DNA of 47,546 nt from Candidatus Micrarchaeota archaeon (lineage in GTDB: Archaea; Micrarchaeota; Micrarchaeia; Norongarragalinales; Norongarragalinaceae): the NCBI GenBank assembly GCA_013360305.1, contig JABWCK010000004.1:1-47546 (forward strand). The letters run 5' to 3'. Below the pieces are notes generated by a model. It ran no database searches, was not told where the DNA came from, and saw only the letters and a program-made list of their open reading frames with translations. The position numbers and the translations under genes are program-made. Within the stretch, counting starts at the first letter, position 1, and every line of letters begins with the position of its first letter. Shown piece by piece: positions 1,835 to 47,321 of this stretch.

Positions 1835-2452
1835 ATGAAATCATTTAGAGAACCCACTAAACTGCCTAAACCAGAAGTTGACAAAATCATTGAAAGAACA
1901 AACGAAGTAATTAGTTTAGCAAGACAATGTGAAAAGATCCTCTCACCTAACACCTTAGACTTAATAAGTAAAAAAGCCAGTTCAAAAAAAATAGACGGAA
2001 GCATAAAAACAACCGAACAACGCAAATTGATTGACATTTTAGCCGGAAAAAAACTAAAAATAATACGCGTACTAACTGAAGATGGAAGTTACTTGACAGG
2101 GCTAGCTTCTGAAGGTGGAAAAAGCGATAGTTATGAATACATCATTGCAACAACTCACCCAAACCATGTAGAAAAACAAGTTCAAATAAAATTTCCAGAA
2201 GCACATGAAATAAATTTTGAAAAACACTTACAAGAATTTGCAAACGAAATAGGATACCCAATAAATATCAGTACAGACGAAGAAGAAGAAGCCGAAGCAT
2301 GGATACGAGAACAAAAAACAGATCGACACATTATTGGAGTAGACACTCAAAAAAAGCTTATTCTCCTAGATGCTAGACATTTAAGAAAAGAAAAAATAAT
2401 GCGTGCTTTTTTCAATCATATGCACGAAGCACCTAACTTGCGCCTTAACTAA
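1835..2452 (+). CDS. hypothetical protein
   Basis: 205-aa ORF whose ATG directly abuts the argS TAA. Contains an acidic patch DEEEEAEAW. No motif recognised. Confidence 0.5.
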   Translation: MKSFREPTKLPKPEVDKIIERTNEVISLARQCEKILSPNTLDLISKKASSKKIDGSIKTTEQRKLIDILAGKKLKIIRVLTEDGSYLTGLASEGGKSDSYEYIIATTHPNHVEKQVQIKFPEAHEINFEKHLQEFANEIGYPINISTDEEEEAEAWIREQKTDRHIIGVDTQKKLILLDARHLRKEKIMRAFFNHMHEAPNLRLN

Positions 2453-3081: not shown

Positions 3082-3607
3082 TGCGCATCCTCTTCAAAAC
3101 CAATCCGCCCAACAATATTGAAACGATTATCGACGCAGCCAGAACGAAAGATTCTGCTTCGCGCGGCTTTAAGTTAGTATAAGGAATAAAAGAAGGTTGT
3201 TGTACTCTAGCGGAAGTGCAGTAATTGAATGAAGTTAATTGTTTTTCTCCTTCAAATACTGAAATAATGCAAGAACCAGTTATTACAGGCAAAACCAAGT
3301 GAATTTCTTGGTCTGGAATAAAGAATTCTCTAGTGATTATTTGACCAGTATCTCCAGACACTTCTGCAGTCTTATACCTAGAGTCAGGTACTTTGATTTC
3401 TTTCAAAACGTTGGATCCGGCTAAGTATTTCAAAACTAAAAAGTGTTCTTGGGGCAAGGAATAATCAGGCAATTCAGCATAACCGTATTCCGCTTTCTCG
3501 AAAACTAAACCAGCTTCAGTAAATTGAAGAGTTACTAGCATTGCTTGTTGTTCTACTGCTGAAGCAAACAAGGCGAAAAACATTATTGTAAGAAAAACTT
3601 TTTTCAT
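3074..3607 (-). CDS. hypothetical exported/membrane-anchored protein
   Basis: 177 aa. N-terminal signal-like MKKVFLTIMFFALFASA and C-terminal hydrophobic anchor LAASIIVSILLGGLVL followed by KRMR. ATGA overlap with the upstream peptidase gene. Confidence 0.5.
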   Translation of the reverse strand: MKKVFLTIMFFALFASAVEQQAMLVTLQFTEAGLVFEKAEYGYAELPDYSLPQEHFLVLKYLAGSNVLKEIKVPDSRYKTAEVSGDTGQIITREFFIPDQEIHLVLPVITGSCIISVFEGEKQLTSFNYCTSARVQQPSFIPYTNLKPREAESFVLAASIIVSILLGGLVLKRMRSG

Positions 3608-5355
3608 TTGTATTTACTCAACTCGTATTCAATGCTCCAAACATCCGAAGGAGCATAAACTTCTCTTTCTAGCGACTGCATTACGCTGTCTTCAAACACT
3701 TCATGCCAATTCTCGTTGGCTACGCCAGATTTTACGTCAATGCTTCTGCAAGTATTGTTAAATACTCGGCCAGCTACATTGAAGCACTCGAATCGATTGT
3801 TAAACAAGTTAGGCTGTGGATCTTTTTGAACATAGTACCCGTCGCAGCAATACCTGTCGGCTAAACCGAAAGAGTGTCCAAACTCGTGTAAAAATAATTG
3901 AGGATTGTTTTTAGTCAAGAATATTTCGTTTCCACCAGAACCGCCATACTTGTCGGTATTAATTACTACTACTGAAACGTCAGCAAAAGGACAAGCTGCT
4001 GCATAACTTTCATCAAGATCGCAATTCCAAAGCCTCGATTCTACTCCAACATCACCTAGAATGCTGCATTCAACATTGAAAGGATAATAGTAAACGTTTA
4101 GTTTATTCTGGTTTTTTTCTTCAGAGAACGGCTTTAGAGAAAAAACGGATCCAGTGAAAGAATCCACTTGGTCAAGCAATTCATTAACATTCGAGAAGCT
4201 AGACGGAGAGAAAACTACATCGATTTTTTGAGAAGAATCTCCATGGTAAAGCAATTGCTTGCAAGGACTAATAATTACTTTAACTGGCTCGGATTCAACA
4301 ATTCTTCCAGTGAACCCAATTACTCTAACGAGCAAAGAATACTGGCCATTCAAGGGAGGAATTACTTGAATACTCCAGTCTTTTCCTCCTTGAGCCTTAA
4401 ACCAATTTTCTCCATCAAAACTAACCTGCACTTCCCTAGGTTGTTTTGACGACTTAACCCGTCCCTTAACTATAAGCAATGGTTCAGAAATAATTTTTTC
4501 ACTAGTAGGATAATCAATAAACAACTCAGAATCGTCAATTAATTTTTCAGTTAATAAAAACAAAGCACGCTTATCGTTCAATTTTAATAGTTTTATTACT
4601 ATACCAGAAGCTTCAATTTCGTTTCCTTCAGTTAAAATGGTTCTAGGAATAAGCGTTTTTTCTCCTTGAGAAATCTTTATTGAAGCAGAATTAGAACCAA
4701 CGTCAACTAATTGAATAGTTACTCCTTTAAAGGAATAAACGCCGTTTTTTTCTAGTTGTTCTTGAACTGATTCGCCTAAATCGTTTACTTGCGATTCGCT
4801 TGAAGCTTTTTCAGCATTTAAGAAATCAAAAGAAGAAGATTGAACTTGAGTTGGCTTCGAAACGATTTCAACTAACTTGTTTTTTGACAAAGACAACTCT
4901 AACGGCTCCAACCTTAAAGTAACAAAACTAGCTTGTTTTATGTCAACAATTTTCTCTTGCTTTTTGAAGCCATCGAGTTCAACTTTGAAAGAAACTAGTT
5001 TTTTAGGAACATTGTCAAAAAAAACCCTTCCACTTGCAGACAATGAACCGGCCATTTCTTGGCCGTCCACTAATAACAAAACCCTAGCGCCACTAATTGG
5101 AGAATTGTCTAAAGAACTAACTACGCTCAAGTTAACGCCAGTAGTATCGCGAGGTTGTGAAAACCACCACAGCAAGGTTAAAACTAAAACACCCAGCAAT
5201 ACTAGTAACGGCAGCAGTATTTTTTTTGGTTCTTGCAGAGAGTAATAAGTCTGATCTTCTTGGTCTCCTAAACTAATTGGAGAAATTTGACCACGACCAC
5301 CCCGGGGGCGTGCCCCCACACTGGTCGACCCTCCCCCGTTAAAAATTCTCGACAT
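3604..5355 (-). CDS. membrane-anchored zinc metallopeptidase, M64 (IgA-peptidase)-like
   Basis: 583 aa. One TM segment (LLPLLVLLGVLVLTLLWWF). A CarboxypepD_reg-like stretch (ISGARVLLLVDGQ). C-terminal GGSGGNEIF...LHEFGHSFGLADRY matches the M64 HEFGHSF-GLADEY zinc motif. The N-terminal 18 aa are encoded by GC-rich repeat copy A. Confidence 0.6.
   Translation of the reverse strand: MSRIFNGGGSTSVGARPRGGRGQISPISLGDQEDQTYYSLQEPKKILLPLLVLLGVLVLTLLWWFSQPRDTTGVNLSVVSSLDNSPISGARVLLLVDGQEMAGSLSASGRVFFDNVPKKLVSFKVELDGFKKQEKIVDIKQASFVTLRLEPLELSLSKNKLVEIVSKPTQVQSSSFDFLNAEKASSESQVNDLGESVQEQLEKNGVYSFKGVTIQLVDVGSNSASIKISQGEKTLIPRTILTEGNEIEASGIVIKLLKLNDKRALFLLTEKLIDDSELFIDYPTSEKIISEPLLIVKGRVKSSKQPREVQVSFDGENWFKAQGGKDWSIQVIPPLNGQYSLLVRVIGFTGRIVESEPVKVIISPCKQLLYHGDSSQKIDVVFSPSSFSNVNELLDQVDSFTGSVFSLKPFSEEKNQNKLNVYYYPFNVECSILGDVGVESRLWNCDLDESYAAACPFADVSVVVINTDKYGGSGGNEIFLTKNNPQLFLHEFGHSFGLADRYCCDGYYVQKDPQPNLFNNRFECFNVAGRVFNNTCRSIDVKSGVANENWHEVFEDSVMQSLEREVYAPSDVWSIEYELSKYK
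5291..5340 (-). repeat. GC-rich G5/C5-hairpin element, copy A (inside coding sequence)
   Basis: Minus strand reads AACGGGGGAGGGTCGACCAGTGTGGGGGCACGCCCCCGGGGTGGTCGTGGTC. It shares the collinear blocks GGGGGA, GGTCGA, ACGCCCCC and TCGTGGTC with copy B (28905-28976). Strong local GC spike in an AT-rich gene. Confidence 0.6.
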
Positions 5356-6174: not shown

Positions 6175-6465
6175 CTACTTGTGTTTTTTAGCGATTTCCC
6201 ATGCTTTAGGGTTATCAGCAAAAACAGAAACTTCTTCATGAAGCTGTTTTAAACGGCGATAATAATCCGCGCCAACATTCACGCTAGGCTGTTTATCTGA
6301 ATCAGGAGACAACCTGCGTTCTAGTTCTCGTCTGAAAGCCCATAATGAAACTCTTCCATTTCGAGTATTTAATTCTTCAAGAATGTTATGACCTTCGCTA
6401 AACCTTGCTCTATTCAAAAAAGACTTTATATGAGCATAATCGTTTGATTGGTGAATTCCGGGCAT
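6175..6465 (-). CDS. hypothetical protein
   Basis: 96-aa ORF wedged between aIF1A and the RIO kinase on the same strand. No motif recognised. Confidence 0.4.
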   Translation of the reverse strand: MPGIHQSNDYAHIKSFLNRARFSEGHNILEELNTRNGRVSLWAFRRELERRLSPDSDKQPSVNVGADYYRRLKQLHEEVSVFADNPKAWEIAKKHK

Positions 6466-8082: not shown

Positions 8083-10128
8083 TTACCATTTTGGTCGAGC
8101 GCTCTTGATGAAGCCCGGCTTTGGCTTGTACAATTCTCCCTGTCGGAGTAATTGGTCTATAGTCGTTTGAACGAATCCTTCATCCAAGCCAATTTCGACT
8201 CCCTTCTTTAAGACTTCTTCTAGCGGAACTAAATCGAATTGTTTCTCCAAGTCCTTGATTAAATTATTAACTTGTCTAATCTTGTCAATCTTGCTCTTTG
8301 ATTGTCCTAATAATACTACGTCAACGTCTAGTTTTCCAGTGTCTTTATCCATGAATACTTCCTTCAAAACGTAATCCTTCAACTTAATCGCAGTCTCAGC
8401 GTCTTCTAAACTAACCACGTTGCTTAATCTCAACTTAGCCGAAGCTTCAGCTAACCTAACTAATCCTTCCAAGTCACGAGGAGTAATAGGAAAAGTGTTA
8501 TCCTTTTCTCCTAAACGACGCAACTCGACGTAGTAGTCTTTAATTCTTTCAATAGCAGCGTCACTCAATAAGGGGAAAATGTTTCTTCGCGAGTAAGCAA
8601 TGTATTTGCGGACTATTTCTTCAGGAATTTCTGGAGCAACCGCTATAGTCAAGTCTGCAGGCGCTAGTTTTTCTCTCGAGTGCTTGTGGCCCATTAAAAT
8701 GTGTTCAGCCATTCCCCTATCTCGACTAGAGTCAAGAACGTCTTTCAATACGAAAATCAAGTCAAACCTGGAAAGCAAAGTAGGCATGATATCAAATTGC
8801 TGTGCTACTGGCGTATTCGGGTCAAAACGACCGAACTTTGGATTAGCTGCTGCTAAAACGCTAGTCTTAGTCTTGAATTTAGTAACGATTCCGGCTTTAG
8901 CGACTGAAACGCTTTGCTGCTCCATAGCCTCGTGAATTGAAGCACGGTCATTATCATCCATCTTGTCAAACTCGTCTATAGCAACCAACCCGCCAGATGC
9001 TAGAACCATTGCGCCTGCCTTCAACACCCAGCCCTCACCAGCCTTGTCTTTTTCGGCACTAGCGGTTAAACCAACACCTGAAGCTCCTCGCCCGGCAACG
9101 TAAATACACTTGGGTGCTAGTTCTTCAGTAAACTTCAAAATCCTAGACTTAGCGACACCAGGGTCTCCAATTAATAGCATGTGCATGTCGCTTCGAATTT
9201 TTTGGCCGTCGGGCAATATTTTTTCAGGCGTGCCGCCGAATAATTGCAAAGCGATTGCTTCCTTCAACATGTCGTAGCCGTAAATGCTGGGAGCAATGCT
9301 TTTAATGAATTGTTGTTTCAAATCCGGTTCTTTAGACAAGCGCAAGATTTCTTCTTCCTCTTCTGGACTGATTTTTATTTCCTCAAACTCTTTCTCGCTC
9401 TTTTTTATGTGCACGACATCCAAGACTTTAGAATAAACAGGACTCTTGCCTTTCCCGTATTCCTTGCGAGGCATTAACCTCAAAATACCAGTTAATACAA
9501 CGTTTTCTCCAGGCAAGACCACATTAGTCAAGTCATCCTCAAACCACAAGTCAACGTGAGCAGGAGTAGACGACCCAAGCACTCTTTCAATCAAGTCTTG
9601 CATTTGGCCATACTGCATGTTAACGAAGTCGCTTGACGATTCTAGTAATTTGAAGTCTTTTCTGCCACAACGACACAACTCGGGTTGGTTGACTACAGTC
9701 TTGTCAGGAATAGTCTTCATAGTAGTACCGCAGTGAATGCATTCCCACAAACTCACTTGCATTCTAGGCTTGATGTCAGTAACTAAGTTCACGACTCCCT
9801 GAACTTCAATTAACTTATTCAAGTGATCCGCACCCAAGTCTTTTACTAAGACGTCTGTTGAATTCTGCACTCCAAAAAACCTTACTTTAGCTTTCAAAGG
9901 TTTTCCATCAAACGTTTTTTGCTTGCTTAACGCTTCCTCGGCTGCTTTATTGAAAGAATCAGGCTTGTCTTCAACAGCTAAAGCTAGTTCGTGATTAAAC
10001 AATTCTAGTTCCTTCAAATCGACTTCCAAGCTAGAAATCTTTGAATTAGGAGCTTTCAACTCGCTTAAGGCAGACTGCATGCTGCTTGAATTAAAGAACT
10101 CGTCAAACTCTTGAACAAAATCGCTCAT
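8083..10128 (-). CDS. mcm: MCM replicative helicase
   Basis: 681 aa. Zinc motif CIHCG...CRCG, Walker A GDPGVAKS, Walker B IDEFDKM and arginine finger SRFDLIF. No intein-sized insertion. Confidence 0.9.
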   Translation of the reverse strand: MSDFVQEFDEFFNSSSMQSALSELKAPNSKISSLEVDLKELELFNHELALAVEDKPDSFNKAAEEALSKQKTFDGKPLKAKVRFFGVQNSTDVLVKDLGADHLNKLIEVQGVVNLVTDIKPRMQVSLWECIHCGTTMKTIPDKTVVNQPELCRCGRKDFKLLESSSDFVNMQYGQMQDLIERVLGSSTPAHVDLWFEDDLTNVVLPGENVVLTGILRLMPRKEYGKGKSPVYSKVLDVVHIKKSEKEFEEIKISPEEEEEILRLSKEPDLKQQFIKSIAPSIYGYDMLKEAIALQLFGGTPEKILPDGQKIRSDMHMLLIGDPGVAKSRILKFTEELAPKCIYVAGRGASGVGLTASAEKDKAGEGWVLKAGAMVLASGGLVAIDEFDKMDDNDRASIHEAMEQQSVSVAKAGIVTKFKTKTSVLAAANPKFGRFDPNTPVAQQFDIMPTLLSRFDLIFVLKDVLDSSRDRGMAEHILMGHKHSREKLAPADLTIAVAPEIPEEIVRKYIAYSRRNIFPLLSDAAIERIKDYYVELRRLGEKDNTFPITPRDLEGLVRLAEASAKLRLSNVVSLEDAETAIKLKDYVLKEVFMDKDTGKLDVDVVLLGQSKSKIDKIRQVNNLIKDLEKQFDLVPLEEVLKKGVEIGLDEGFVQTTIDQLLRQGELYKPKPGFIKSARPKW

Positions 10129-17190: not shown

Positions 17191-17191
17191 A

Positions 17192-17263
17192 TGGACTCGA
17201 CGGGACTTGAACCCGCAGCCTCCTCCATGCCATGGAGGCGGTCTGCCATTGACCTACGAGCCC
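17192..17263 (-). tRNA. tRNA-Ala (anticodon GGC)
   Basis: 72 nt. Acceptor GGGCUCG/CGAGUCC includes the G3:U70 alanine identity pair. Anticodon stem CCUCC/GGAGG with loop AUGGCAU. T-arm GCGGG-UUCAAGU-CCCGU. Confidence 0.9.
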
Positions 17264-17295
17264 AAATTTTCTTTAAAAAGAAAATTTGATTAAAG
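17264..17295 (-). promoter_or_regulatory. palindromic A/T promoter-like module (copy 4), abutting tRNA-Ala +1
   Basis: Minus strand reads TTTAATCAAA-TTTTCTTTTTAAAGAAAA-TTT, immediately followed by G1 of tRNA-Ala. Confidence 0.5.
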
Positions 17296-17327: not shown

Positions 17328-17383
17328 ATTTAAAGGGGGTGACGAGTACACCGAAGTAGGGGGTTTCCCCCTAGGTTGGTGAT
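17328..17383 (+). repeat. GC-rich G5/C5-hairpin element, copy C (between Alba stop and tRNA-Ala promoter)
   Basis: Plus strand reads AAAGGGGGTGACGAGTACACCGAAGTAGGGGGTTTCCCCCTAGGTTGGTGATC. It shares AAAGGGGG, ACGAGT, CGARGTA, a G5/C5 hairpin and a GGTxG(R)TC tail, in the same order, with the minus strand of copy B. Confidence 0.55.
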
Positions 17384-17677
17384 CTACTTTTTGAGTGTTA
17401 GTGTGACGCTTGATACTCTACTGTTTGAACCATCTTCTGATTGTAGTTCTTCAGTAGTGACTTTGAATCCGGTTATTTCTAGCGTGTTGATGAATCGGTG
17501 TTTGGCTATTTGAGTAGCATCTACCGCGCGACTAATTGCAGCGCCTCTGGCTTTTACTTGAATTTCAGTCGAGCCTTGGTTGAATTTAGTGACTATTGCT
17601 AGCACGTAGCTCATTACGTTCTTGCTGCCGACGTAGATAATGTTTCCATCTGGTTTTTGTGTTGATTGGTCTTCCAT
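17384..17677 (-). CDS. albA: DNA/RNA-binding protein Alba
   Basis: 97 aa. NIIYVGSKNVMSYVLAIVTKF...IQVKARGAAISRAVDATQIAKHRF matches the Alba fold signature. GAGGTG SD lies 8 nt upstream of the ATG. Confidence 0.85.
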   Translation of the reverse strand: MEDQSTQKPDGNIIYVGSKNVMSYVLAIVTKFNQGSTEIQVKARGAAISRAVDATQIAKHRFINTLEITGFKVTTEELQSEDGSNSRVSSVTLTLKK

Positions 17678-19846: not shown

Positions 19847-20365
19847 TTAAATCAATTTATACAATCCTTGTTTTTTTTCTAACAATTCGCCGTTTTCTTT
19901 CAAGACGAATACAAGGCTTTGTGCCGCTTCTAAACTTATTTTAAGGAAGTCGGCTATTTCTTGCACTCTACAGTCTTTTTCCTTCATGAAAGCATAAAGC
20001 TTAGGCGATTGTTGTTCGAGAAACCACTTGCTAACAATGTAATAACGCTTGTCGAAGCCACGTACGCCCAAGACGTTGCCGGATTTTATTTCAGGTTCTA
20101 ATTGAATAGATAATTCTTTGGCTTTTTCTTCATCTTGAACTACTAAAAATCCTTTATCAAGCAAACCCGTCTTCTTTGGCTTTACTTGGTGGTCAGGAAC
20201 TAGTGGGGCGAGTTCTTTCTTTAATGATTCTTTGAATACTAAAACAAAAACGCCAGGCTTGACTTCTAAAAAATCAACATCATCATTAACCCTAGCCGAA
20301 ACAGCTTTCGCTACTGAATCAGGCAATACTATAGCTAACGAATCACCGTGCTTGAATACTCGCAA
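19847..20365 (-). CDS. AbrB/SpoVT-domain protein with C-terminal winged-helix-like region
   Basis: N-terminal VFKHGDSLAIVLPDSVAKAVSARVNDDVDFLEV fits the swapped-hairpin AbrB/MazE motif. The C-terminal part (CRVQEIADFLKISLEAAQSLVFVLKENGELLEK) looks wHTH-like. TTG start lies 5 nt after AGGTGGG. Confidence 0.45.
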   Translation of the reverse strand: MRVFKHGDSLAIVLPDSVAKAVSARVNDDVDFLEVKPGVFVLVFKESLKKELAPLVPDHQVKPKKTGLLDKGFLVVQDEEKAKELSIQLEPEIKSGNVLGVRGFDKRYYIVSKWFLEQQSPKLYAFMKEKDCRVQEIADFLKISLEAAQSLVFVLKENGELLEKKQGLYKLI

Positions 20366-20415: not shown

Positions 20416-21441
20416 TTATTCGTTTGAAGCAATTCCTTTTTGCTTCAGGAAGTTAACTGCTTCAGAATGAGTTTTAGGCCAACTAGCAAGCTTAACACTT
20501 GGATTGAAACCTCCGGAAACTAATTGTTCTAATCCGGAATAATCAAGTTCGCTCAGTTTAGCAGACGCAACTTTAGAAGCAAGAGAGTTGCTCAAACCTT
20601 GATTGGCCAAATAGCTTAATGATGCCCTATGCAATAACGCTTTAGCAAGTTCTTCCTTATTCGGATTTTTACTAGGAGAATAAGCCAAAGTTGAAATGAT
20701 TTCGGCAGCAGGTTCTGAAACAATTTCTTTAGGAAAAATACTTACTCCGCTAAAACCAGATTGAGAAGCGTGTTCATGCAGTTTAGCATAATGTGCTGAA
20801 CCAAAACAAACTAAAACACTCATTTTTTGACCTTTTAAATCAGGATATCTTTTTATTAAATCCGAACCAAGACTAGAAAAAGCAGACTTTAAATAATCTT
20901 CTCTATACCTATCTCGTTTCGATTCTAAAACTAAAGAATTCTTAAATAACTCAATAGCTCTAGACAAATTTCCATCAACTAAATGACTCGAAGCGTGATT
21001 GTTAAGTTCTCGGACTTGCTTATCCATCGAGTTTAACTGATCAAATTCCTTTTGAGAATAACGCTCTATGAAAAAAATTTTAGAACCACTATTTTCAGCA
21101 GTCTTCAAAACTCTTCCTAAAAAGGGATGGTGAGCATAAGCAGGATAATGCGTTTCGAAATTATTAGTTCCAAATTTAGACTCAATATCACGATGTACTT
21201 CTTCTCTACCGATACTTTCCAAAACAACCACAGATGGGTTTAGTTCATTAATTTTCTGCACAGCCTGATCTGCATCACTAGCGCGTTCATGATATGAAAA
21301 AGAAAAAGTAACTTTCGCCCTGGAATTATTAAGATTATTTACGTGGTCAACATACGCCCTATGGCCAAAAACGCCTAGAGCTAAAGTAGTCAATACACTT
21401 CCAACTGCAACGACTTTCCTAAACGAAAAACGATCTTTCAT
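20416..21441 (-). CDS. membrane-anchored protein, possible TraB/Tiki/ChaN-superfamily member
   Basis: N-terminal TM (VVAVGSVLTTLALGVF). Ordered candidate motifs FSYHE, VVLESIGREE, SKRDRYRED and VLVCFGSAHYAKL resemble the GxxH...E...RD...GxxH layout of that superfamily. The assignment is weak. Confidence 0.3.
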   Translation of the reverse strand: MKDRFSFRKVVAVGSVLTTLALGVFGHRAYVDHVNNLNNSRAKVTFSFSYHERASDADQAVQKINELNPSVVVLESIGREEVHRDIESKFGTNNFETHYPAYAHHPFLGRVLKTAENSGSKIFFIERYSQKEFDQLNSMDKQVRELNNHASSHLVDGNLSRAIELFKNSLVLESKRDRYREDYLKSAFSSLGSDLIKRYPDLKGQKMSVLVCFGSAHYAKLHEHASQSGFSGVSIFPKEIVSEPAAEIISTLAYSPSKNPNKEELAKALLHRASLSYLANQGLSNSLASKVASAKLSELDYSGLEQLVSGGFNPSVKLASWPKTHSEAVNFLKQKGIASNE

Positions 21442-27978: not shown

Positions 27979-28683
27979 ATGAAGTTATTCAAAGCAATCG
28001 CAAGTGACTACACTCGTTTGAGAAGAAACTCAGCGCTAGATAAAATAAGCGCGTTCCACCCAGAATTGTCAAAAGACTTGGCTGAAAAAAAAATTAATTT
28101 AAGACACATAGCGAGAGTATTAAACGAACACGAACGCGGCTTAAGCAAAGAAGACAAGAAAATAAACGCAACACGACATTTTGCAGAAACGCTTAGAACA
28201 CTAATCAATGAAGGTTACTATACAGATTTCACTGCTACTCGGTTGAAAAACTTGTTTTTGAAATACCGAAAAAAACCCAGCAACACCATAGCTATATCCG
28301 ACAAAATGAAGGACTTTTTTTCAACTTTAAAACCAAGCGATTCAGCACGAATTAAAGACTACTTAGATTTCTTGAACGCAGGGTTGCAAAGAAACAAACA
28401 AATAGAAGAAGCATTAGAAAAAAAAGCAATTAGCTTAAGTACAACTGAATTAAGGCAAGCTAGAATAAGAACGGTTTTCAACCCATTAACGTTAAGCGAC
28501 GTGTTCAAAAAACTAGTTTCTTCACCTAATTTTAGAGAGTACCACTCGATTTACTGGGATGCAGTAACTAAAGGAGATGCTGAATTGCTTGAAAAAATAA
28601 TAAGTCTCGACCCTAAAACAATGGATCAAGAAGAAATAAAGAAATACAAAGAAAAAGTAACCGCATTGCTAAGAAAAAAATAA
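27979..28683 (+). CDS. hypothetical basic protein
   Basis: 234-aa Lys/Arg-rich helical-looking ORF. No motif recognised. Confidence 0.45.
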   Translation: MKLFKAIASDYTRLRRNSALDKISAFHPELSKDLAEKKINLRHIARVLNEHERGLSKEDKKINATRHFAETLRTLINEGYYTDFTATRLKNLFLKYRKKPSNTIAISDKMKDFFSTLKPSDSARIKDYLDFLNAGLQRNKQIEEALEKKAISLSTTELRQARIRTVFNPLTLSDVFKKLVSSPNFREYHSIYWDAVTKGDAELLEKIISLDPKTMDQEEIKKYKEKVTALLRKK

Positions 28684-28685
28684 AA

Positions 28686-28850
28686 TTAAGCAAAAGAAAG
28701 AGAAGGAATAGAAACTTGTTCTTGAATGCTTGGAACGCAGTCTAGAATGACTCTTCCGCCTTGATGGATTATTTCTCTAACGTTGTAATCCGCGTCGGAA
28801 AAAACTCTTTCTAAATCCTTGTACGAAATCCTTGAAACATCAATCTTCAT
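28686..28850 (-). CDS. possible 54-aa small protein
   Basis: ATG 10 nt after GGAG. Reads MKIDVSRISYKDLERVFSDADYNVREIIHQGGRVILDCVPSIQEQVSIPSLSFA. Not in the track and no family recognised. Confidence 0.3.
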   Translation of the reverse strand: MKIDVSRISYKDLERVFSDADYNVREIIHQGGRVILDCVPSIQEQVSIPSLSFA

Positions 28851-28904
28851 ATTGCTTCATCTCCCCGCACTTGTGCGGAAATAGACAACTGAAGCTGGTT
28901 TAAA

Positions 28905-28976
28905 AACCAAAGACCGACCACGATTCCGGTGTCCGCATGGGGGCGTTGTACCTCGACCGGACTCGTTTTCCCCCTT
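28905..28976 (-). repeat. GC-rich G5/C5-hairpin element, copy B (intergenic, directly after the GT2 stop codon)
   Basis: Minus strand reads AAAGGGGGAAAACGAGTCCGGTCGAGGTACAACGCCCCCATGCGGACACCGGAATCGTGGTCGGTCTTTGG. About 60% GC over its core (hand count), against an AT-rich background. Shares collinear blocks with copies A and C. Confidence 0.6.
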
Positions 28977-29684
28977 TCAGCGGATTCGTTCGTATTCTTT
29001 TTCTGATTTTCCTAGGAAGTGGATTTCGAACAAGTTTTTGACGTGAAAGGCAGTGAATTTAAGCAGTCCCCAAGCACGAATTCTTCTGGGAGAAATAGTT
29101 ACAAACGACTTGGGTTCGAATACTACTTTCCCGCGTTTTTTTAGTTTTTTTAATAATTCAATATCTTCAGCAGTTACTAGTTCGGTCTTGAATCCCTTGA
29201 CTGCGTCAAAGTCTTTCTTGCGTACGGCAATATTAAAACCCGCTCCTGAAGGCATTCCTAGCACTGCTAGAATCCACAAGTAACTCGAAAAAGCGGGTCG
29301 AGCGAATAATTTTTCCAAGAAAGTAGGGTTAGCTACTTCGGCAGTACCGTAAACAGCGACTACGTTAGGATCATTGAAGCGGTTAGCCATTATAGCAAGC
29401 CAGTCTTTTGGAGCGATAGTATCTGCATCAGTGAAAACAAGTATTTCTCCAACTGCGTGACCGCATCCAGCTTGTCTTCCTGAAGCAATAGTGTGCTTGA
29501 TTTCTTTGTATACGCCTTTAATGTATTTTTTAGCTATTTCTCTAGTATTATCCGTACTTTCTCCGTCGGCGACAATGATTTCAAAAGGTTGCTTGAATTC
29601 TTGCGATAAAATCGACTCTAGAGTGCGAGCGATATTTTTCTCTTCATTATAAGTAGGAATAACTACAGAGACTAGCGGTTTCAT
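28977..29684 (-). CDS. family 2 glycosyltransferase
   Basis: 235 aa. VSVVIPTYNEEKNI start, ADGESTD and FTDADT (DxD) motifs typical of GT2/GT-A enzymes. Confidence 0.8.
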   Translation of the reverse strand: MKPLVSVVIPTYNEEKNIARTLESILSQEFKQPFEIIVADGESTDNTREIAKKYIKGVYKEIKHTIASGRQAGCGHAVGEILVFTDADTIAPKDWLAIMANRFNDPNVVAVYGTAEVANPTFLEKLFARPAFSSYLWILAVLGMPSGAGFNIAVRKKDFDAVKGFKTELVTAEDIELLKKLKKRGKVVFEPKSFVTISPRRIRAWGLLKFTAFHVKNLFEIHFLGKSEKEYERIR

Positions 29685-44739: not shown

Positions 44740-45820
44740 CTAACAATTTTCTTCCTAGATTAAAGTAAAACTCTTCAGCTATCAACGTTTCTCTTATTGA
44801 AACGAATTCTTCAGCACAATGAGCTAAAGACTCCGGCCCCGGACCCAAGTCTATTACTTGACTGCCTAGCTCGTAAAAAAAGCGAGCATCGCTTGCTCCG
44901 CTTTCTTTTAATAATTCAGGAAAAACTTTCAATTCTCTTAAAGAATCAACGCTTTTTTTAACTAAAAAAGCATCTTTTGGCTCGACGAATCCTTGAGAAA
45001 CCGCTTGAGTAGTGAAAGTAAAATCTAATTGTTCAGCCAACAACTCGAAATCCTTGATGAAAGATTTAACGTTCAAAGAAGGAGGGAGCCTGAAGTCTAC
45101 TATAGCTTCACAATAATCAGGAACTATATTCGCAGCATGCCCGCCTGAAATCATGCCGATATTCATAGTCTTCTTATAAAAACGGTCGTCTTCCAACCCG
45201 TCTTCAGTAGAAAACCTTGAAGACAAGTAATTCAATAACTTGAACATTTTTTTAATCGCATTAACCCCAAACTCTACCCTATCCACGTGAATAGCTTTTC
45301 CTTTAGTAATGATTTTCAATTCAACCAACGATTTTTGTCCTCGGATTATTTTCAAATCACTCGGTTCACCAGTAACCACGAAATCCGGTTTAGGCAAGTG
45401 AGAAATTACTGCCTGTGCGCCGTTCTTTCCCGAACCTAGTTCTTCATCGCCAACTATTGCTAAATAAACAGAACCACTTAGTTCTTGACTAGCTAATCGC
45501 AAGAACGCGTTTATTTCAGCAGCCAAACCAGCTTTCATGTCGCAAGAACCCAATCCATACAATCGGTCTCCAGTTACTCTAGGTTTAAACGGGTCAGTCT
45601 TCCAGTCGCCGGCAGGGATAGTATCGTAGTGAGCGTTAAACAATAATTTTTTACCAATTTCTTTCTTGAAAGCAATCAAGTTTTCTACATTGTTTTTCTT
45701 AACTCGCTTAATAGTAACTCCCTTAGCATGTAGTAATGGCTCGATAAAGTCAAGAATCTCGGGCTTGCTGTCTACTGAATCTATAGAAATCAATTTCTTA
45801 GCCAAGTCAATAGTCTTCAT
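44723..45820 (-). CDS. M20-family metallopeptidase (ArgE/DapE-like deacylase)
   Basis: 365 aa. NAHYDTIP, GSCDMKAG and GDEELG metal/catalytic motifs. Overlaps both neighbours (17 nt and 4 nt). Confidence 0.75.
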   Translation of the reverse strand: MKTIDLAKKLISIDSVDSKPEILDFIEPLLHAKGVTIKRVKKNNVENLIAFKKEIGKKLLFNAHYDTIPAGDWKTDPFKPRVTGDRLYGLGSCDMKAGLAAEINAFLRLASQELSGSVYLAIVGDEELGSGKNGAQAVISHLPKPDFVVTGEPSDLKIIRGQKSLVELKIITKGKAIHVDRVEFGVNAIKKMFKLLNYLSSRFSTEDGLEDDRFYKKTMNIGMISGGHAANIVPDYCEAIVDFRLPPSLNVKSFIKDFELLAEQLDFTFTTQAVSQGFVEPKDAFLVKKSVDSLRELKVFPELLKESGASDARFFYELGSQVIDLGPGPESLAHCAEEFVSIRETLIAEEFYFNLGRKLLGEKHG

Positions 45821-47091
45821 TTCAATACCTTCACTAAGTCTTTTTCTGAAAGCAATTCTTCTTTTCCTGAAGACATGTCTCGGACTTTAAACTTGCCTGA
45901 TTTTAATTCTTGTTCTCCGCAGAAAATAACAAAACTAATTCCTTGCTTTGAAGCGAAATCCAAGTTCTTGGAAACGCCTTTCTCATTCAAGTCAACCAAC
46001 GCGTTAACGCCATTGCTTCTGAGAGTTTGAGTTAGTGCTATTGCTTGAGGCAAGGTCTTAAACGGAATTACTAAAACATTGACTACGCTTTGTTTAGACT
46101 CAGTTTTCTTTAATTCTTCACACAAAACATCCAACCCAAAACTAATTCCAACAGCAGGAACCTCGCCCCTGCCTGAGAACTTTCCAATCAATTCATCGTA
46201 GCGACCGCCAGCTGCAATGCTTGATTTTATTTCAGAATCCTTCAAAAACGCTTCAAACACTATGCCCGTGTAATAATTCAATCCCCTAGCAAGAGTAGGA
46301 GAAAACTCCACGATTTTTACATTAAATTCGTTCAAGAATTCAAAAAATTCTTTCAACTCATTAAAACCAGCTTCAGCGTCAGCATTACCAATCTTAGAGT
46401 AATCACTCAACTTCTTGGATTCAAGTAATTTCAAAGCATTAACAACGATTTTCTCACTAAAACCTTTGTCTACTAATTCTTTTTTTACGCCAGAAACACC
46501 AATTTTTTCCAGCTTGTCTAAACTCAAAATAAAACTAGCTTCCTTATCCTTAGAAACACCCGCTTTCTGCAGTACTCCGTTCAACAACTTACGACTATTA
46601 ACTTTAACGACTACACTCAAGCCTAATTTTCTAAAAGCATCTTGTGCTAGAGCCATTAACTCTGCTTCGGCAGAAACACTCTTTACTCCAAGCACGTCAA
46701 CATCGCATTGAACGAATTCTCGGTAGCGCCCTGCTTTGAGTGGGCCGTCCCTCCACACTTTGTCTATTGCGTATCTTTTGAAAGGCATTGGGAAACTGTT
46801 TCCGGCTATCAATCTAGCTAAAGGCACAGTCAAGTCATACCTCAACCCTAACTTTCGTTTGCCTTGGTCTTCCAACTGGTAAGTTTCCTTCAAAATCTCT
46901 TCCCCGCCAGCGAATTTTGATGACAATACTTCAATATTTTCTAAAGCAGGCGTTTCTAACGGGTTGAACCCATAAGACTCGAATACGCTCGAAAGCTTCG
47001 CTACCGCCGAATTCCTCAATATTTTTTCACTCGGCAAAAAGTCTCTCGAACCACGCACTGCAGTTAAATCCATAGCATAATCACTAACCAT
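45817..47091 (-). CDS. hisS: histidyl-tRNA synthetase
   Basis: Class II motifs RGSRDFLP, GRYREFVQCDVDVLG and AAGGRYDELI. Start set to the ATG at 47091 (or 47073), because the track's upstream extension runs through tRNA-His. Confidence 0.85.
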   Translation of the reverse strand: MVSDYAMDLTAVRGSRDFLPSEKILRNSAVAKLSSVFESYGFNPLETPALENIEVLSSKFAGGEEILKETYQLEDQGKRKLGLRYDLTVPLARLIAGNSFPMPFKRYAIDKVWRDGPLKAGRYREFVQCDVDVLGVKSVSAEAELMALAQDAFRKLGLSVVVKVNSRKLLNGVLQKAGVSKDKEASFILSLDKLEKIGVSGVKKELVDKGFSEKIVVNALKLLESKKLSDYSKIGNADAEAGFNELKEFFEFLNEFNVKIVEFSPTLARGLNYYTGIVFEAFLKDSEIKSSIAAGGRYDELIGKFSGRGEVPAVGISFGLDVLCEELKKTESKQSVVNVLVIPFKTLPQAIALTQTLRSNGVNALVDLNEKGVSKNLDFASKQGISFVIFCGEQELKSGKFKVRDMSSGKEELLSEKDLVKVLK

Positions 47092-47116
47092 TTGAAGAAT
47101 TAAAAGAAAACGAAAG

Positions 47117-47188
47117 GGCGCTAACCGAGAATCGAACTCGGGACGCAAGCTCCACAGGCCCGCGTGATACCATTTCACCATTAGCGCC
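47117..47188 (-). tRNA. tRNA-His (anticodon GUG) with genomically encoded G-1
   Basis: G(-1) plus acceptor GCGCUAA/UUAGCGC plus discriminator C73, giving the 8-bp His-type acceptor. Anticodon stem CGGGC/GCUUG with loop CUGUGGA. T-arm CCGAG-UUCGAUU-CUCGG. Confidence 0.85.
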
Positions 47189-47321
47189 ATCCCAAAAACT
47201 AAGGCTGCTGAAAAATTTTAATAAAAAGACAGAGTTAAAACTAGTAATGAGAGAACGAAGCTGAATGAAGTAAATCACTATTCACCATTTTAACTCCTTA
47301 ATAAAAAATGAAGTCAATCCC

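Follow-up and report, generated by a model that had tools for sequence, protein, structure and literature searches.

Three short GC-rich islands, here called A, B, and C, stand out in an AT-rich archaeal contig, each carrying runs of five G and five C residues. The question they raise is whether they are copies of one element and, if so, whether that element works as RNA or spreads as DNA. The initial annotation described them as a three-copy family of hairpin elements, either REP/MITE-like or a structured RNA. The island sequences that it quoted match exactly those in the AT-rich background of the window, by which we mean the whole 47,546-nt stretch of DNA that was analyzed (38.7% GC).

GC-rich islands of the window

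The top protein matches of the window are to Candidatus Micrarchaeota, indicating that the DNA is from a DPANN archaeon, and its genes include those for Alba, a RIO kinase, a proteasome subunit, SMC, MCM, and aCPSF1, in addition to four tRNAs. The spacers are short and AT-rich, with a GC content of typically 0.14 to 0.35. A, B, and C are the sole non-tRNA GC-rich islands in or adjoining these spacers: their 40-nt GC peaks reach 0.80, 0.70, and 0.62, respectively, and the 40-nt maximum in all other spacers, except those holding a tRNA, is at most 0.57. Runs of at least five G or C residues number 13 in the window, and 8 of the 13 fall inside A, B, and C. When 13 runs were placed randomly, a fraction of 5.5e-5 of the trials gave at least three loci at which a G5 and a C5 fell no more than 60 nt apart. 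The C5 also lies at a similar distance from the first G5 in the three elements (29, 31, and 32 nt). Elsewhere, only two G5/C5 pairs were found in ~330 kb of DNA from other Micrarchaeota, and such pairs are scarce too in ~450 kb of Thorarchaeota DNA, both sets having a higher GC content than the window. Independent Logan assemblies of three other samples contain A and B without a single base difference, so neither is an assembly artefact; look-ups using Alba and HIT returned no independent record of C.

Shine–Dalgarno motifs are nearly absent before the start codons of the window and TATA-like boxes lie ~25 to 30 nt upstream of them, which suggests that the mRNAs of this genome are probably predominantly leaderless. 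Shine–Dalgarno mimicry, in which the G5 runs would pair with CCUCC, was set aside as a role for the islands because the genome is nearly without Shine–Dalgarno motifs and has mostly leaderless promoters. Elsewhere in the window, the longest form of the ORF at 45817-47190 (minus strand) overlaps tRNA-His (47116-47187) by 75 nt, and its real start codon therefore probably lies further downstream.

The three sites in a related genome

An Alba-based scan identified a Micrarchaeota metagenome-assembled genome, GCA_043822385.1 (contig JBDRBT010000006.1), whose Alba is 83% identical to that of the window. The sister sequence used for comparison comprises 41,276 nt of this contig, joined from three loci; it is collinear with window positions 176-36320 (~36 kb), with proteins 40 to 86% identical. 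A, B, and C are all missing at the orthologous sister sites, and the 41 kb of sister sequence contains no G5/C5 pair and no GC-rich spacer island. Spacers between the two genomes differ by tens of nucleotides anyway at this divergence. Moreover, the presence/absence comparison rests on one sister genome with no syntenic outgroup, so that gain here and loss there are indistinguishable. A contig from SRR22388092, tried as an outgroup, showed no synteny at any of the three loci; a JGI metagenome scan with aCPSF1 gave a best match of 73% identity and no usable orthologous spacers; and GT2 glycosyltransferase homologues at 42 to 45% identity lie in neighborhoods where the adjacent genes are not conserved. 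The word-indexed protein search missed the sister GT2 ortholog (59% identical) even though other proteins of the same contig were indexed, so absence from that search is no proof against close relatives.

The two genomes also differ in gene content. The ORFs at 27979-28683 (plus), 20416-21441 (minus), 1835-2452 (plus), and 6175-6465 (minus) have no counterpart at collinear sister positions, and none of the four gave a convincing Pfam match. In the sister, the stretch from the small ORF to the proteasome gene holds two other genes, one GPN-loop-type ATPase-like and one HGSNAT_cat. The window MCM (8083-10128, minus strand, 681 aa) has no intein; the sister MCM (L035 4728-8360), 1210 aa as called and 1230 aa by ORF call, contains an intein and LAGLIDADG domains; and in L037, which is more distantly related, MCM contains two inteins and topoisomerase VI A and B contain inteins as well.

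Element A lies in the following setting.

5290-5346, minus strand: element A, ~57 nt, 19 codons (IFNGGGSTSVGARPRGGRG), placed in frame behind codon 3 of its host gene
3604-5355, minus strand: host gene of A, 583 aa, membrane-anchored, metalloprotease-like

The initial annotation treated the islands as three equivalent intergenic 3′ elements, a description from which A departs: delimited there as 5291-5340, it is contained within the ORF at 3604-5355, where it forms codons 4 to 22 and, read in frame, extends the N terminus. The host gene gives weak metalloprotease and CarboxypepD_reg matches. Its sister ortholog, 565 aa long and 56% identical, begins with MRAQLSPIS, which aligns with window residues 21 to 29 (RGQISPIS), and the protease ATG lies 33 nt from the RIO kinase stop codon in the window compared with 39 nt in the sister. 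An ortholog that starts at residue 21 behind a like-sized upstream spacer indicates that the window gene carries ~19 extra in-frame codons. These hold a G5, a G5-CACG-C5 segment, and the 8-bp palindromes GGTCGACC and CCCCGGGG. They are rich in codons that are otherwise rare (three GGG, 6% of Gly codons; CGG, 3%; CCC, 10%) and their GC content is above synonymous expectation (p=0.02), which argues that the nucleotide sequence of A was not shaped by translation. Relative to shuffles, A folds with z=-1.6 (minus strand) and z=-2.8 (plus strand). It spans approximately +10 to +66 of an mRNA with the promoter spacing that indicates leaderless initiation. AATTT and TCAAAT repeats flank A, with no match at B or C. 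Excision of A as an archaeal bulge-helix-bulge (BHB) intron, whose boundaries would show two 3-nt bulges with a 4-bp helix between them and helices on either side, would restore a sister-like N terminus; a custom search of both strands found no BHB motif with an excised length matching the inserted segments, and in B no BHB motif at all. The N termini of distant protease homologues are unrelated and too variable to polarize A.

Element B has a composite structure, in which two lineage-specific blocks are combined with older spacer.

28905-28976, minus strand: element B, GC-rich island extending from the GT2 stop codon to the promoter of a conserved 54-aa ORF
28961-28976, minus strand: B block 1 (AAGGGGGAAAACGAGT), holding the G5; absent in the sister alignment
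28933-28954, minus strand: B block 2 (GAGGTACAACGCCCCCATGCGG), holding the C5, in the loop of a conserved CCGGT/ACCGG hairpin; absent in the sister
28901-28932, minus strand: ancestral spacer part of B (ACACCGGAATCGTGGTCGGTCTTTGGTTTTTA), kept in the sister as ACCGGAATTGAGGTTCGCCTTTGCTTTTTA
28977-29684, minus strand: GT2 glycosyltransferase gene; B adjoins its stop codon
28686-28850, minus strand: ORF of 54 aa downstream of B, conserved in the sister (76% identity), with homologues adjoining SMC in other Micrarchaeota

B directly follows the GT2 stop codon (TGA, 28977-28979), as had been noted. Readthrough of the stop codon into B was rejected on the grounds that GT2 orthologs, that of the sister included, share the position of their last residue. 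The sister site reads TAA-CCGGTTCCACCGGAATTGAGGTTCGCCTTTGCTTTTTA and retains only a CCGGT-TCC-ACCGG hairpin and a T-rich tail, which identifies the tail of B, TCGTGGTC..GGTC, as old spacer. Thus, although TCGTGGTC does occur in B as a word in common with A, as the initial annotation stated, it and the GGTC tail belong to the sister-conserved spacer. This ancestral part comprises a terminator-like hairpin and a T-tract, and the 54-aa ORF downstream probably has its TATA box here too. A G5…C5 stem, proposed for each copy, can be drawn on paper, but the nested fold of B is like that of shuffles (z=+0.27 for the minus strand and -0.55 for the plus). A pseudoknot, in which G5:C5 would cross CGAGUCCGGU:ACCGGAAUCG, was rejected since its crossing-stem score of 31 compares with a shuffle mean of 30.8 (p=0.48).

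Two features near B are worth recording in their own right. A micro-protein of 50 to 54 aa (MKIDVSRISYKDLERVFSDADY...) adjoins SMC in several Micrarchaeota (window 28686-28850; L034 7809-7961; L039-L041); it has no Pfam match, and its leader carries a conserved GGGGAG before the ATG, among the very few Shine–Dalgarno-like motifs in the window. In the sister, a small single-copy hairpin on the opposite strand at the B site (L034 7718-7740) reads TTCCGGTGGAACCGG, which may resemble the TTCCAGTGGAAA dyad of archaeal origin-recognition boxes; no Orc1/Cdc6 gene lies near it.

Element C, at 17328-17383, is located between the Alba stop codon and tRNA-Ala.

17340-17372, plus strand: lineage-specific core of C (TGACGAGTACACCGAAGTAGGGGGTTTCCCCCT), absent in the sister
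17357-17373, plus strand: perfect 7-bp hairpin of C, TAGGGGG-TTT-CCCCCTA, with a strong GC stem
17335-17339, plus strand: first G5 of C, ancestral; the sister has CTTTCCCCCTTATTTT at the same place (Alba sense strand)
17384-17677, minus strand: Alba gene
17191-17264, minus strand: tRNA-Ala(GGC), downstream of Alba

C abuts the Alba stop codon (17384-17386) in the opposite orientation, in agreement with the initial annotation, and is inverted relative to its host gene in comparison with A and B. The gene order Alba, tRNA-Ala, HIT, tRNA-Val is the same in the sister, and the spacer from Alba to tRNA-Ala measures 119 nt in the window versus 68 nt in the sister. The sister site reads TAA-AAACCTTCTTTCCCCCTTATTTTTTG; it has no hairpin but does contain one C5 run, equivalent to the first G5 of C on the plus strand of the window. 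Thus the runs of C, which had been counted as part of the family, include an ancestral one. C is the only element with a strong hairpin (z=-2.3 on the plus strand, -1.85 on the minus strand relative to shuffles), the strongest perfect GC hairpin of the window outside tRNAs. Only four such GC hairpins exist in the window, C included, and one of the others is a tRNA stem.

Relationship and origin of the islands

Similarity among the islands was assessed by local alignment against dinucleotide shuffles (the strict test) and against shuffles that preserve the G5/C5 runs (the lenient test). Under strict scoring no pair is significant (p=0.35 for A-B, 0.15 for A-C, and 0.09 for B-C), and the alignments are thus no better than shuffles; under lenient scoring A-C reaches p=0.007, with A-B at 0.05 and B-C at 0.13. 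The A-C alignment runs end to end through G5, spacer, G5-loop-C5, and then a GGT-rich tail, and the copy orientation originally assigned outscores the opposite orientations. The islands thus have a layout in common, and the alignment offers modest evidence of A-C homology, far below what a young repeat family would give. Further copies or donors were sought in 900 kb of DNA, which yielded chance 11-12-mers only, and an exact 20-mer search of IMG/VR for copies of A, B, or C returned none. No terminal inverted repeat or consistent target-site duplication was found at the boundaries defined by the sister, no transposase (by Pfam), RAYT/TnpA included, was found among the unassigned window ORFs scanned, and there is no covariation among the three, the common pairs being invariant G5:C5 only.

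G5/C5 hairpin elements were also observed in two other Micrarchaeota contigs, at L053 15085-15150 and L044 17430-17460. Both lie upstream of an orthologous AbrB/MazE-like gene of ~170 aa, whose window ortholog is at 19847-20365. The first, GGGGG-TAC-GGGGGCAACACTGGTAGCCCCC-GAGTGGAC, has the layout of A and C (G5, G5-loop-C5, G-rich tail), has the direct repeat AGTGGACAAA at its flanks, and matches nothing in Rfam; the second reads CCCCCACCGGCAAGGGGG.

Collectively, the islands are present here and absent in the sister, and they are GC-rich with a common G5…C5 layout. The explanation that we favor, tentatively and at somewhat short of an even chance, is that A, B, and C are lineage-specific, short, GC-rich palindromic or hairpin-forming insertions produced by one DNA-level insertional process. 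Such insertions, ~35 to 57 nt long, would have entered an AT-rich, mostly leaderless Micrarchaeota genome, most likely through a tiny non-autonomous mobile element or one spread by gene conversion, of a GC-cluster or REP/MITE-like kind. Their positions, just after stop codons and in what is presumably a non-conserved cytoplasmic N-terminal tail, would reflect tolerance rather than function. We infer a common origin, and insertion here rather than deletion in the sister, from several lines of evidence: the empty orthologous sites at all three loci, the non-random clustering and like spacing of the G5 and C5 runs, the end-to-end A-C alignment, the rare codons of A, and the precedent of yeast mitochondrial GC clusters. 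In addition, the orientation of C to its host gene is opposite to that of A and B, which accords with a DNA-level element but not with a common mRNA signal. Because AT bias should erode GC-rich sequence, A, B, and C would be either recent or maintained. Other observations argue against the insertion reading. Active mobile families are usually near-identical and these copies show low identity; B consists of two blocks around a conserved hairpin arm and not of one insertion; the first G5 of C is ancestral; inverted repeats, target duplications, a transposase, and further copies are lacking; and the spacers of the two genomes diverge in length in any case. The REP/MITE-like label of the initial annotation accordingly keeps its support from the absence at sister sites, the varied contexts, and the use of both orientations, but not from the copies themselves, which are not near-identical and lack the terminal repeats, duplications, and transposase of such elements.

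The main rival to this explanation, which we consider unlikely, is that palindromes grew locally at each site by template switching, snap-back synthesis, or slippage, with no movement between sites. The seeds would be the ancestral C5/T-rich motif after Alba and the ancestral CCGGT/ACCGG hairpin after GT2, and the process would yield inverted copies of G5/C5. Indeed, the new 5′ arm and loop of C, AGGGGGAAA, are the exact reverse complement of the sister TTTCCCCCT after Alba, beside a second CCCCCT, and at the B site one arm of a hairpin already present in the sister has new sequence on either side of it. The low identity between copies, and the lack of a target-site duplication, terminal inverted repeat, or transposase, also fit local growth. 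It leaves unexplained, however, why the same G5…C5 layout and spacing should arise at three sites and nowhere in the 41 kb of the sister, as well as the end-to-end similarity of A and C; moreover, no seed for A is visible in the sister sequence.

Lineage-specific RNA hairpins acting in cis are comparably improbable as an explanation. Here B and C would protect the 3′ ends of the GT2 and Alba mRNAs or aid termination, and A, located close to the 5′ end of a leaderless mRNA, would tune stability or initiation. Such roles accord with the start of B and C at the first base past a stop codon, with the strength of the C hairpin, with the conserved terminator-like tail of B, and with the position of A at about +10 to +66 of a leaderless-type transcript. 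In contrast, B is no more stable than shuffles, the same genes in the sister do without all three islands, C comes to lie antisense to its host gene in the orientation behind the A-C similarity, and no covariation is available in support.

It is quite improbable that the three islands are unrelated and alike by GC content only, A being a G/R-rich N-terminal tail, B a diverged 3′ spacer, and C a hairpin. The strict alignment is not significant, the common words are partly ancestral, and spacers diverge widely anyway, all of which this explanation accommodates; the G5/C5 clustering (P ~5e-5), the lack of any other GC-rich spacer in either genome, the A-C similarity (p=0.007), and the aberrant codon usage of A speak against it.

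RNA-family searches bear on the remaining proposal. At the gathering threshold, Rfam 15 matched four tRNAs only in the whole window; at E<=10 it gave no match to B and, for C and A, sub-threshold noise that falls mostly outside the elements. ARAGORN likewise found four tRNAs in the window and none at A, B, or C, and neither a T-loop nor a complementary D-stem could be discerned by eye in B. Readings by eye for C/D box, H/ACA, K-turn, hammerhead, SECIS, and tRNA halves gave no convincing fit. GC-rich islands of AT-rich archaeal genomes are often RNA genes, which counts toward such an identity. Genes of a new small noncoding RNA family, comprising B, C, and a cryptic A, nevertheless seem very improbable: B on the minus strand and C on the plus strand are each followed by five T residues, and the G-richer strand of A and of C folds better, but there is no Rfam match at E<=10 even in tiny search spaces and no tRNA, the sister lacks the elements, no TATA box lies at about -26 from the G5 start, A is translated, and B has no excess structure and a T-tract that is ancestral spacer. 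The reading of A, B, and C as a structured RNA family is not supported by the Rfam, tRNA, covariation, and folding-energy results and should be dropped.

If the islands are instead local hairpin expansions or unrelated, they are of modest interest, as an oddity in how spacers evolve. Whichever holds, the notion of a new structured RNA family is removed and the annotation of copy A is corrected to coding.

Comparison with known elements

The conserved tail of B (ACCGG..TCGGT, then CTTTGGTTTT) fits the simple pattern of an intrinsic terminator, a hairpin followed by a T-tract. Unlike a terminator family, however, the part of B that matches is ancestral and is not the G5/C5 part, and A is within a coding region. 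Termination in archaea depends on the T-tract and not on a hairpin.

Archaeal MITEs, for example the SM elements of Sulfolobus, are non-autonomous elements of 80 to 350 bp with the terminal inverted repeats of a parent IS and target-site duplications. The islands are likewise candidate insertions in an archaeon, but the inverted repeats and target duplications of MITEs are absent here.

REP/BIME elements, mobilized by RAYT, and the IS200/IS605-derived PATEs are short imperfect palindromes found just after stop codons; REPs have a GTAG head, and their similar copies number in the tens to hundreds. C begins GTAG-GGGGTTTCCCC-CTA (GTAGGGGGTTTCCCCCTA), which resembles the REP head. In contrast, A and B lack a GTAG head, no RAYT/TnpA is encoded by the scanned ORFs of the window (47.5 kb), and the copies number three, weakly similar, within 47.5 kb.

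Rickettsia palindromic elements are inserted in frame in protein genes and translated as an extra peptide; they are ~100 to 150 bp long, bacterial, and present in many recognizably homologous copies. A shares with them its in-frame position and its translation, but is 57 nt long and has no clear homologue.

A further comparison is to the GC clusters of yeast mitochondria. The GC42 clusters are 42-bp, hairpin-forming, and mobile in the AT-rich yeast mitochondrial genome, where their copies are numerous, nearly identical, and accompanied by an AG target duplication (PMC4478555). A, B, and C differ from GC42 in being three poorly similar copies with no target duplication and in residing in an archaeal host. 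As in yeast mitochondria, they are GC-rich hairpin segments of ~40 to 60 nt in AT-rich spacers, present or absent between relatives, and with no protein of their own in cis. The hairpin-capable, GC-rich segments in AT-rich surroundings are seen here, though B folds like shuffles, and so is presence/absence at orthologous sites, with one sister genome.

A larger claim, that the islands represent a new class of ~35 to 60-nt GC-rich palindromic mobile elements in DPANN archaea, is one we regard as possible yet doubtful. They would multiply within a streamlined, AT-rich genome, landing just after stop codons or in frame within genes as a G/R-rich peptide. If they are mobile mini-palindromes, they could serve as strain markers for Micrarchaeota populations, and such DNA would be able to remodel protein N termini and 3′ untranslated regions. 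Tiny, streamlined, symbiont-type archaeal genomes would then host selfish DNA as AT-rich organelles do, and the islands would be an archaeal counterpart of the mitochondrial GC clusters.
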